Source: Omnitrophica WOR_2 bacterium GWF2_43_52 (lineage in GTDB: Bacteria > Omnitrophota > Gorgyraeia > Gygaellales > UBA12090). From it: a stretch of DNA of 59,812 bases. Positions 9,439 to 10,564 of this stretch are shown here, piece after piece. The notes below the pieces were generated by a model. It was not told the origin of the DNA. It did not search any database and saw only the letters and a program-made list of their open reading frames with translations. The position numbers and the translations under genes are program-made. Location: NCBI GenBank assembly GCA_001805445.1, contig MHGF01000036.1, forward strand, positions 96,010-155,821. The letters run 5' to 3'. How positions within the stretch are numbered: position 1 is the stretch's first letter; each line of letters begins with the position of its first letter.

Positions 9439-9756
9439 ATGGCCGGAAAAACATACTGTAAAAATCCTGATATGGTATACCGTAAGATTGCTGATGAACT
9501 TATCTTGGTGCCTGTGCGCAAGCAATCCGCCGATTTGAATGCTATTTATCTTTTAAATGAAACTGCCGGCTTTATCTGGGAGCTTATCGACCAAAGGAGC
9601 TTTGAGGAAATAGCCCGGATAGTTAATGGCGCCTATGATGGCGGTTTGGAAACTATTCAGGATGATGTGCGTTTCTTTTTAGAGCAGTTAGTCCAGATCG
9701 GGGCTGTACAGGAAGCAATAGCTGATGGCCGCACAAGTAGTACCGCTTTTAAATAA
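9439..9756 (+). CDS. PqqD-like peptide chaperone (RRE-type), copy 1
   Basis: 105 aa. YRKIADELILVP...IYLLNETAGFIWELID...FEEIARIV...VRFFLEQLVQIGAV matches the PqqD-family pattern. Confidence 0.7.
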   Translation: MAGKTYCKNPDMVYRKIADELILVPVRKQSADLNAIYLLNETAGFIWELIDQRSFEEIARIVNGAYDGGLETIQDDVRFFLEQLVQIGAVQEAIADGRTSSTAFK

Positions 9757-10564
9757 AAATTTCCTGCCTCTTGTAGGGGAGATACTTGCCCACGGGAATT
9801 CCCTGCGATTTAAAGCCAGCGGCAGGAGTATGCTGCCGGTGATTAAGAGCGGGGATATTGTAGAGGTTGGCCCGCTTACTAATGAAATTATCATAGGGGA
9901 TATTCTTCTCTATCGAAACTCTCGCTCTGAGGCTGTGGTGCACCGGATGATAGGCCGTGTCCGAGGAGAAAACCAAGTATTTTTTTTAGTTAAGGGCGAC
10001 TCATCAAGTGAGACTGACGAGCTTGTATCCGAAGCGCAGATTCTCGGTAAGGTCATTGACATTCATGCCAAGGCCAGAGTATCTTTTCGCAAGAGTTTAA
10101 GCATTATTTTTCATAAGATTCAGAGTTTGCCATTATATGCAAGATTAGCGAAAGCCTTTATCCAACCGCGGGAAGCATTTACCTTTGAGATAAAAGAAGC
10201 GCCTGGGATTACCTATCTTAGCCTTATGAGGCAAGGCAGGCTCATAGGATCTATGGAATTGTCTAAGGATATAGTATATAAGGACGCTTTGATCGTAAGT
10301 TCTCTTTGGGTGCACTGGGCATACCGCAGGGCGGGCCTTGGTAAAAGGATGATGAAAGAAGCTTTTTCCTATGCGCATAAAGAAAGAGTAAGGGAAATCA
10401 GGTTGTTTATCTCAAAATTTAACCGTGCGGCAATGGCGCTTTATCAAAAGCTGGGGTTTGTAGTGGTAGATACCGGTACCAAGAGCGGCTATGGCCTTGA
10501 TTTTATACAATTAAAGAGAGATGTTGAGAACGCTTCTTGCGATACCCCCGAAATATGGAATTGA
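9725..10564 (+). CDS. S26B/S24-type serine peptidase fused to a GNAT acetyltransferase
   Basis: 279 aa. N-terminal half has SGRSMLPVIKSGD (Ser nucleophile context), VVHRMIG and VKGDSSSETD, as in archaeal/ER-type signal peptidase I. C-terminal half has WVHWAYRRAGLGKRMMKEAF...ALYQKLGF, a GNAT core. Confidence 0.62.
   Translation: MAAQVVPLLNKNFLPLVGEILAHGNSLRFKASGRSMLPVIKSGDIVEVGPLTNEIIIGDILLYRNSRSEAVVHRMIGRVRGENQVFFLVKGDSSSETDELVSEAQILGKVIDIHAKARVSFRKSLSIIFHKIQSLPLYARLAKAFIQPREAFTFEIKEAPGITYLSLMRQGRLIGSMELSKDIVYKDALIVSSLWVHWAYRRAGLGKRMMKEAFSYAHKERVREIRLFISKFNRAAMALYQKLGFVVVDTGTKSGYGLDFIQLKRDVENASCDTPEIWN

Follow-up and report, generated by a model that had tools for sequence, protein, structure and literature searches.

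What does a single protein that carries both a peptidase and an acetyltransferase do among genes for peptide maturation? This question is raised by a 59,812-nucleotide stretch of Omnitrophica WOR_2 bacterium GWF2_43_52 (GenBank contig MHGF01000036.1, forward-strand positions 96,010 to 155,821), which we call the window and number from its first letter. On its plus strand, at 9725..10564, lies a gene for a 279-residue protein, P0001, in which Pfam, NCBIfam and an AlphaFold2 (AF2) model identify a peptidase domain like that of endoplasmic reticulum (ER)/archaeal-type signal peptidase I (MEROPS S26B), fused to a GNAT acetyltransferase. We consider it rather probable that P0001, with its two domains, is a cytoplasmic maturation enzyme of a cassette for a peptide synthesized by ribosomes and modified after translation (RiPP). 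The cassette would be related to the clusters that Bacillota carry for linear polyphosphorylated peptides (LPPs; Popov et al., Nat Commun 2026; PMC13381572), and P0001 would combine a leader peptidase like LppS of those clusters with an optional, N-acylating GNAT domain.

P0001 is encoded by a single, stop-free frame of 279 codons, and an AGGAAG box precedes its start ATG. The start of the gene is overlapped by 32 nt by the 3' end of a gene for a PqqD-like RiPP recognition element (RRE; copy 1, 9439..9756, plus strand, Pfam PqqD E = 1e-14). Its own 3' end is overlapped by 44 nt by the start of a gene for a B12-binding radical SAM enzyme (10521..12017, plus strand). Within P0001, all on the plus strand, the peptidase domain extends over 9746..10078 (residues ~8-118, an N-terminal helix at 10-22 and then a beta-barrel), two linker helices over 10085..10162 (residues 121-146, from DSSP of the AF2 model) and the GNAT domain over 10166..10528 (residues ~148-268, from Pfam Acetyltransf_1 and VIA). 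The 3' overlap, 10521-10564, makes up the final 14 codons of the gene. The C-terminal tail is modeled with a predicted local distance difference test (pLDDT) score of only ~58, yet P0003, a homologue of 62% identity, has it in near-identical form, which a constraint from the overlapping B12-radical SAM gene probably explains.

Two adjacent genes merged by a frameshift or an assembly error could also produce such a protein. Nothing beyond the prior possibility speaks for it, although some database homologues (P0003, P0005) have their start placed at the S-M-x-P Met and hence look like GNATs only. We regard a merger as almost certainly wrong, and it is refuted by three observations: the frame is uninterrupted, a separate 99%-identical copy of P0001 lies on another contig, and 86 fused representatives were found in databases. 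Furthermore, the fusion occurs in many genomes, the 62%-identical homologue covers both domains, and the confidence of the AF2 model persists through the linker. The database figure comes from a HMMER scan of 1.84 billion cluster representatives, which returned 5,209 matches at E <= 1e-3. When the best 151 of these 5,209 representatives were sorted by architecture with custom domain hidden Markov models (HMMs), 86/151 were S26+GNAT and 54/151 were S26 alone (~150-170 aa). A further 8/151 were S26+GNAT+NTP_transf_5, and 2/151 were S26+NTP_transf_5. A non-circular check of the 86 fused forms with Pfam found Acetyltransf_1 in 86/86 and Peptidase_S24 in 63/86, so 63 carry both Pfam domains; Pfam also confirms the triple and the S26-NTP_transf_5 fusions. 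The claim of the sequence-only reading that both domains sit in one polypeptide is thus borne out, each by its own profile searches. That reading had also called the architecture one not known from characterised systems. The fusion is uncharacterised, as it supposed, but it is common in metagenomes and not unique.

The peptidase half is easily missed in public annotation. Six entries (P0003, P0005, P0035, P0045, P0060 and P0092) begin at the S-M-x-P Met and lack the catalytic Ser and the N-terminal helix; these starts are likely mis-called. The peptidase half is hidden as a result, and the precomputed Pfam assignment of all six is GNAT only. Public names for these proteins are either "GNAT family N-acetyltransferase" or "signal peptidase I", and no other. 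The fusion could not be dated from a tree of 140 S26 domains, whose resolution was low (9/137 branches well supported). On this tree the GNAT label changes 30 times, and supported branches force at least six of these changes, which suggests, weakly, repeated gain or loss of the GNAT domain. Searching genome contigs with P0001 alone as the query returned no related loci. A tblastn search of plasmids found no fused homologue, only generic GNAT (SatA) and archaeal signal-peptidase matches. A literature search for signal peptidase, GNAT and PqqD together returned nothing relevant, and neither the RRE-Finder paper nor a 2025 peptide-arginase paper mentions an S24/S26 peptidase, a kinase or an NTP transferase.

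To which family does the peptidase domain belong? The Ser/His motifs of an archaeal/ER-type peptidase noted in the sequence-only reading are all in place. SGRSMLP spans residues 32-38, with Ser35 encoded by AGT at 9827-9829, and VVHRMIG spans residues 71-77, with His73 encoded by CAC at 9941-9943. KGDSSSETD spans residues 90-98, with the codons of Asp92 at 9998-10000 and of Asp98 at 10016-10018. Pfam Peptidase_S24 matches residues 22-111 (E = 6e-6, 26.4 bits against a gathering score of 23.3). The top NCBIfam match is TIGR02228, archaeal-type signal peptidase I (E = 5e-12), at a score of 46 bits that lies under the cut-off of 51.85, and next comes the SipW model NF046067 (33.5 bits against a cut-off of 190). 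The best profile match is to human SEC11A/C (E = 3e-12 with the family profile), in an alignment that takes in the S-M-x-P, H-R-V and K-G-D boxes and places Ser35, His73, Asp92 and Asp98 on the boxes of SEC11A.

Structure prediction agrees with the profiles. The full-length AF2 model, built from an 86-sequence alignment, has a pLDDT of 89.7 and a predicted template modeling score of 0.71. It lays out a helix at residues 10-22 (pLDDT >90), a beta domain to residue 114, helices at 121-146 and an alpha/beta domain to residue 266. Because Foldseek and VIA searches with the whole model returned GNAT matches only, a separate model of the S26 domain was used, which folds alone with a pLDDT of 89.6. 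Foldseek ranks SEC11C/A first for this domain (TM-score 0.61-0.62, probability 1.0), followed by SpsB, LexA-C and SipA. Among the fused homologues Ser35 is kept in 78/79, His73 in 85/86, Asp92 in 85/86 and Asp98 in 39/86. On the GNAT side, the acetyl-CoA motif R201-x-x-G204-x-G206 (R201-R-A-G204-L-G206 in P0001, 10325-10342) is likewise conserved, with R201 in 86/86, G204 in 82/86 and G/A206 in 86/86. Tyr240, within the LYxKxGF motif (ALYQKLGF, which ends at F245, in P0001), is found in 72/86. Since catalytic and cofactor residues are conserved in the 86 fused and in 56 stand-alone homologues, both halves of P0001 look catalytically competent.

These matches could mean that the N-terminal domain serves secretion, as a housekeeping or a specialised (SipW-like) signal peptidase, or that it cleaves itself in the manner of LexA, in either case unlinked to the genes around it. 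The best family matches of P0001 are signal peptidase I models and Peptidase_S24, and public sources label homologues "signal peptidase I". However, P0001 has no transmembrane segment: its best 19-residue Kyte-Doolittle window is 1.26, as the sequence-only reading had anticipated in noting no anchor. The linker region is moderately hydrophobic in many homologues, and a value of 1.6 is reached in 12/86 only. The catalytic Ser lies at residue 35, and the score is under the TIGR02228 cut-off. A LexA-like role is opposed by the catalytic base, which is His in P0001 and Lys in LexA/S24. A true bacterial LepB is encoded elsewhere in the genome (174 bits, above its cut-off), which agrees with the earlier view that P0001 is not the housekeeping enzyme. 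Finally, the gene is found strictly within cassettes for PqqD, radical SAM and kinase proteins and is fused to enzymes of those cassettes. We judge either role highly improbable; the lack of an anchor, the His base, the separate LepB and the cassette embedding effectively refute both. P0001 thus shares the fold and the S-M-x-P, H-R-V and K-G-D...D boxes of the S26B signal peptidases, whereas it is shorter, anchorless, below their family cut-off and GNAT-fused, and is not the general signal peptidase of the cell. Its lack of an anchor predicts that it is cytoplasmic.

What, then, is its substrate? The gene order in the window is PEP-CTERM-type ATPase, 382-aa protein, PqqD, S26-GNAT, B12-radical SAM, UPF0489-TPR, PqqD, radical SAM/SPASM, 57-aa peptide, HprK-like kinase, NTP_transf_5 and, on the opposite strand, an ABC-2 exporter. 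P0001 belongs to a RiPP-type cassette (PqqD, radical SAM/SPASM, peptide, kinase), as the sequence-only reading had supposed. The second PqqD-like RRE (13592..13867, plus strand) and the radical SAM/SPASM maturase (13872..15005, plus strand) are recognized by Pfam and NCBIfam. The 57-aa precursor peptide (14941..15114, plus strand), the presumed substrate, bears YxKPxL in its leader, contains three Cys and ends in Ser. Behind it lie the HprK-like peptide kinase (15121..16077, plus strand; NCBIfam HprK_rel_B E = 3e-6), whose gene adjoins the S26 gene in related loci, and the NTP_transf_5 nucleotidyltransferase (16236..17444, plus strand; Pfam E = 9e-45), which other genomes encode as a fusion with S26 or S26-GNAT. 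The ABC-2 exporter (17441..19034, minus strand; permease 17441-18247, ATPase 18240-19034) is kept at the cassette edge.

A similar set of genes defines the LPP clusters, which combine a SipW-homologous archaeal-type signal peptidase (LppS, WP_029196374.1) with a discrete RRE (LppB), and further with an HprK-like kinase, an NTP transferase that is uncharacterised and an exporter, and which are often embedded in capsule loci (PMC13381572). LppS cuts the leader only when LppB is present, its N-terminal helix contacts the RRE-leader sheet, and the substitutions S29A, H68A and D93A each abolish cleavage (PMC13381572). The LPP leader ends in F-E-T, with Thr at -1 and the logo YxxPxVLxHQxIxFET (PMC13381572). 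According to the same paper, SpI-like peptidases had not been seen earlier in RiPP pathways and LPPs are restricted to Bacillota; its text is silent on GNATs, fusions and radical SAM enzymes.

P0001 and its neighbors resemble this system in several respects. LppS of Paenibacillus alginolyticus and other Bacillota is, like the N-terminal half of P0001, a small soluble ER/archaeal-type S26 domain. Ser35, His73 and Asp98 are spaced by 38 and 25 residues, compared with 39 and 25 for S29, H68 and D93 of LppS, a comparison of positions and not an alignment. The helix at residues 10-22 precedes the barrel much as the N-terminal helix of LppS does. All members of the LPP gene set (peptidase, RRE, kinase, NTP transferase and exporter) lie within one 9.6-kb part of the window. 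The leader motif YxKPx[IL] resembles YxxPx[VIL] of LPPs, with a conserved Thr/Ser near the predicted junction that may correspond to the Thr at -1, and both systems are embedded in polysaccharide loci, that of the window with exopolysaccharide (EPS), Wzc and Wza genes and that of LPPs with capsule genes. The two also differ. The host is a member of Omnitrophota here and of Bacillota there, and the exporter is of ABC-2 type in the window but MsbA-like in LPP clusters. Unlike LppS, the peptidase is fused to GNAT here and to NTP_transf_5 and/or the kinase elsewhere, and the radical SAM/SPASM, B12-radical SAM and arginase-like enzymes are additions of the window cassette.

Two other known systems share parts of the cassette. 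The paeninodin and pseudomycoidin lasso peptide clusters contain a kinase and NTP transferase pair (PadeK/PsmK and PsmN; PMC9266682), and the window likewise combines an HprK-like kinase with an NTP_transf_5-type enzyme beside an RRE. Ser is the last residue of the precursors described here, and the C-terminal Ser is phosphorylated in those lasso peptides (PMC9266682). In contrast to the lasso clusters, the window cassette has neither a lasso cyclase nor a B2 cysteine protease, and its leader peptidase is of S26 type. The second PqqD copy and the SPASM enzyme have ScmD and ScmE of the SynChlorMet (Scm) system as best or near-best NCBIfam matches, but the scores are far under the cut-offs (39 against 100 and 75 against 400), and no Scm model covers the S26-GNAT protein.

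If the peptidase functions with these neighbors, it should keep their company in other genomes. RpoB of the genome shares 86% identity with its counterpart in a Candidatus Omnitrophota MAG and 75-78% with those of others, which places the genome in Omnitrophota. A profile search of 301 Omnitrophota genomes gave matches in 115; up to 20 kb around 40 matches was examined, and the window cassette proteins were mapped onto these regions. At 41 Omnitrophota loci the protease lies within one conserved cassette inside polysaccharide loci. The recurrent order is PqqD, SPASM, three-Cys peptide, HprK-like kinase, a variable S26 protein, NTP_transf_5 and ABC-2. The variable member is S26 alone (L060, L061), S26-GNAT (L039, L041, L044), S26-NTP5 (L059, L062, L073) or S26-GNAT-NTP5 (L040, L043), and PqqD comes directly before S26 at L064, L065, L066 and L067. 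These repeated (Rosetta-stone) fusions indicate that the enzymes of the cassette act on one substrate.

Further arrangements were seen at single loci or in small groups. L074 (G088:C90) encodes a 420-aa fusion of S26 to the HprK-like kinase, and L058 (G148:C3) a 632-aa NTP_transf_5+S26 protein in reversed order. Radical SAM/SPASM is fused to the HprK-like kinase in proteins of ~650 aa at L047, L064, L065 and L067. At L070 (G016:C2:14000-33900) the GNAT association occurs in split form: S26+NTP_transf_5 is encoded twice (553 and 572 aa), and a GNAT of 182 aa has a gene of its own beside PqqD/SPASM genes. Clusters that a language model finds alike offer leads, and no more than leads, to the same module in Thermodesulfobacteriota, Myxococcota and Methylomirabilota.

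Precursor homologues occupy the same cassette position in the related loci, where 27 open reading frames (ORFs) were found. Members of the family share YxKPx[IL] in the leader and acidic-A-V-L-[TS]-x-Cys at the junction, contain three Cys and end in Ser/Thr. By analogy with LppS, the role of the S26 domain as the RRE-dependent leader peptidase of the cassette is well supported. In the mechanism that we propose, a PqqD-type RRE would present the leader to the S26 domain, most likely PqqD copy 1, because its gene overlaps the start of the S26-GNAT gene. The S26 domain, with Ser35-His73-Asp98 and with Asp92 in the GD box, would then remove the leader of the 57-aa three-Cys precursor. The cut would probably fall after the Thr/Ser conserved at the end of E-E-A-V-L-T, with one residue left before the first Cys, a placement taken from LppA, which has Thr at -1. 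For the window precursor, cleavage after Thr27 would release a 30-residue core starting with Asn-Cys-Lys.

What would the GNAT domain add to such a core? Pfam Acetyltransf_1 (PF00583) matches residues 156-245 (E = 7e-14, 52.5 bits against a gathering score of 20.7), and VIA matches residues 147-269 to GNATs at Z 13-15. The nearest solved relatives prominently include protein N-terminal acetyltransferases (Ard1, RimI, Naa50/60/80 and NatD). As an optional tailoring domain, the GNAT would N-acylate the processed peptide from an acyl-CoA, probably acetyl-CoA. The freed alpha-amino group is the favored acceptor because the GNAT is covalently tied to the peptidase, and N-alpha-acetylation of the new core N-terminus is plausible. 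Both the cleavage site and the acetylation target are predictions that we infer from these comparisons.

Other RiPP clusters also employ GNATs, among them KspN/PhaN of the selidamides, with which the window shares a PF12640 neighbor, and the N-terminal acetyltransferase HaaN. Neither KspN/PhaN nor HaaN is fused to a leader peptidase, unlike the GNAT of P0001. GodH, MdnD and PaeN are further RiPP N-terminal acetyltransferases and, to our knowledge, are not fused to a leader peptidase either.

Several observations weigh against the combination of an LppS-like peptidase and an N-acylating GNAT. The conserved Thr/Ser at the predicted cleavage site lies 15 residues after the leader Pro, compared with 12 in LPPs, so that this stretch of the leader, from YxxP to Thr, has 3 residues more. 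With its three Cys and terminal Ser, the core lacks the Ser that LPPs have at position 3 (Ser3). The likeness to N-terminal acetyltransferases is generic, as PaiA, streptothricin and sugar acetyltransferases score similarly. P0001 reaches 19.2 bits against a cut-off of 250 with the model of the RiPP N-acetyltransferase HaaN (NF041716), which weakens the notion that it is a HaaN but leaves the notion that it may acetylate an N-terminus. The GNAT is dispensable, in that L059-L063 have the same cassette without one. Moreover, the residue after the proposed cut (G/A/N) does not set cassettes with a GNAT apart from those without, and a search across the related cassettes for a precursor feature that tracks GNAT presence found none. 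Of the earlier proposal that one protein removes the leader and N-acetylates the product, leader removal gains support from the LppS precedent, while N-acetylation is less secure, with the GNAT optional in otherwise identical cassettes and no precursor feature following it.

A different acceptor is conceivable for the GNAT, with the role of the peptidase unchanged. In the biosynthesis of selidamides a PF12640 peptide arginase makes Orn, which a GNAT then acylates, and acylation depends on the arginase (PMC8784127). Two genes downstream of P0001, at 12129..13595 on the plus strand, a UPF0489 protein (PF12640, peptide-arginase family; Pfam UPF0489 E = 2e-8) fused to TPR repeats is encoded, and the precursor cores are rich in Arg and Lys. 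These features suggest that the UPF0489-TPR protein converts Arg to Orn in the Arg-rich core. By a selidamide-like route, the GNAT of P0001 might then acylate a side-chain amine, of this Orn or of Lys, with an acyl group that could be longer than acetyl. UPF0489 genes occur in ~10/21 GNAT-bearing and 3/19 GNAT-less loci, counts that are not independent because the loci come from related genomes. However, L039, L040, L042, L047, L048 and L050 carry a GNAT without UPF0489, and L068, L069 and L075 carry UPF0489 without a GNAT. The match to characterised arginases is also weak: the NCBIfam model of peptide arginase FlmR/OhkR gives 44 bits (E = 1.7e-11), far under its cut-off of 350. We think that side-chain acylation is unlikely. 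PqqD and B12-radical SAM genes precede the UPF0489-TPR gene in the window and in several related loci (e.g. L041, L043 and L044).

Less likely still, again with the peptidase unchanged, the GNAT would acetylate an amino group on the sugar, or another moiety, with which NTP_transf_5 decorates the phosphorylated peptide. The GNAT directly adjoins NTP_transf_5 in the triple fusions, NTP transferases of the PsmN type add hexoses to phospho-Ser (PMC9266682), and the cassette is located in a polysaccharide locus. P0001 also has weak matches to the sugar N-acetyltransferases PseH (E = 1e-5) and the WecD-like PRK10975, but these are far under the cut-offs and no better than those to other GNAT subfamilies, and S26-NTP5 fusions without a GNAT are common. 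N-acylation of the processed peptide at its freed N-terminus is the reading of the GNAT domain that we prefer over both alternatives.

Further genes flank the cassette on both sides. Upstream, at 7439-9429, lies the XrtA/PEP-CTERM-type ATPase together with the 382-aa protein, which has no Pfam match. A pair of an XrtA/PEP-CTERM-type ATPase and a 350-450-aa protein flanks the cassette in at least 9 other genomes (L041, L045, L059-L062, L068, L073 and L074); it probably either forms the same functional unit as the cassette or links it to the polysaccharide machinery. Downstream, an EPS locus occupies 19492-38095 and 56135-58141, with a Wza-type exporter, a Wzc-like tyrosine kinase/chain-length determinant, several GT4 glycosyltransferases with affinities to the XrtA system and a GspD/PilQ-type secretin. 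A stand-alone GNAT gene (108-557, 149 aa) matches the custom GNAT-domain HMM and lies outside the cassette.

The class of the peptidase and its partners are already known, though only since 2026, when leader peptidases of SpI type entered the RiPP field as a stand-alone enzyme restricted to Bacillota. What is new is that the peptidase is fused to GNAT (at other loci to NTP_transf_5 or the kinase), that the host belongs to Omnitrophota and that the system is combined with radical SAM chemistry on three-Cys peptides. A broader and more tentative possibility is that RRE-guided cleavage of the leader is coupled to immediate N-alpha-acetylation, the substrate passing from the S26 to the GNAT active site. 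The products would be peptides found across Omnitrophota that are cross-linked by radical SAM enzymes, phosphorylated and tied to EPS export. Outside Bacillota they would form a RiPP class akin to LPPs, its peptidase serving as a hub for repeated fusion to GNAT, kinase and nucleotidyltransferase domains. An enzyme that cuts and then caps its product would be compact and might serve peptide engineering. For Omnitrophota, these data indicate that the module of peptidase, RRE, kinase and NTP transferase is widespread and is joined to radical SAM chemistry. Its constant placement in polysaccharide-export loci, in Omnitrophota as in Bacillota, hints at a shared biological role.

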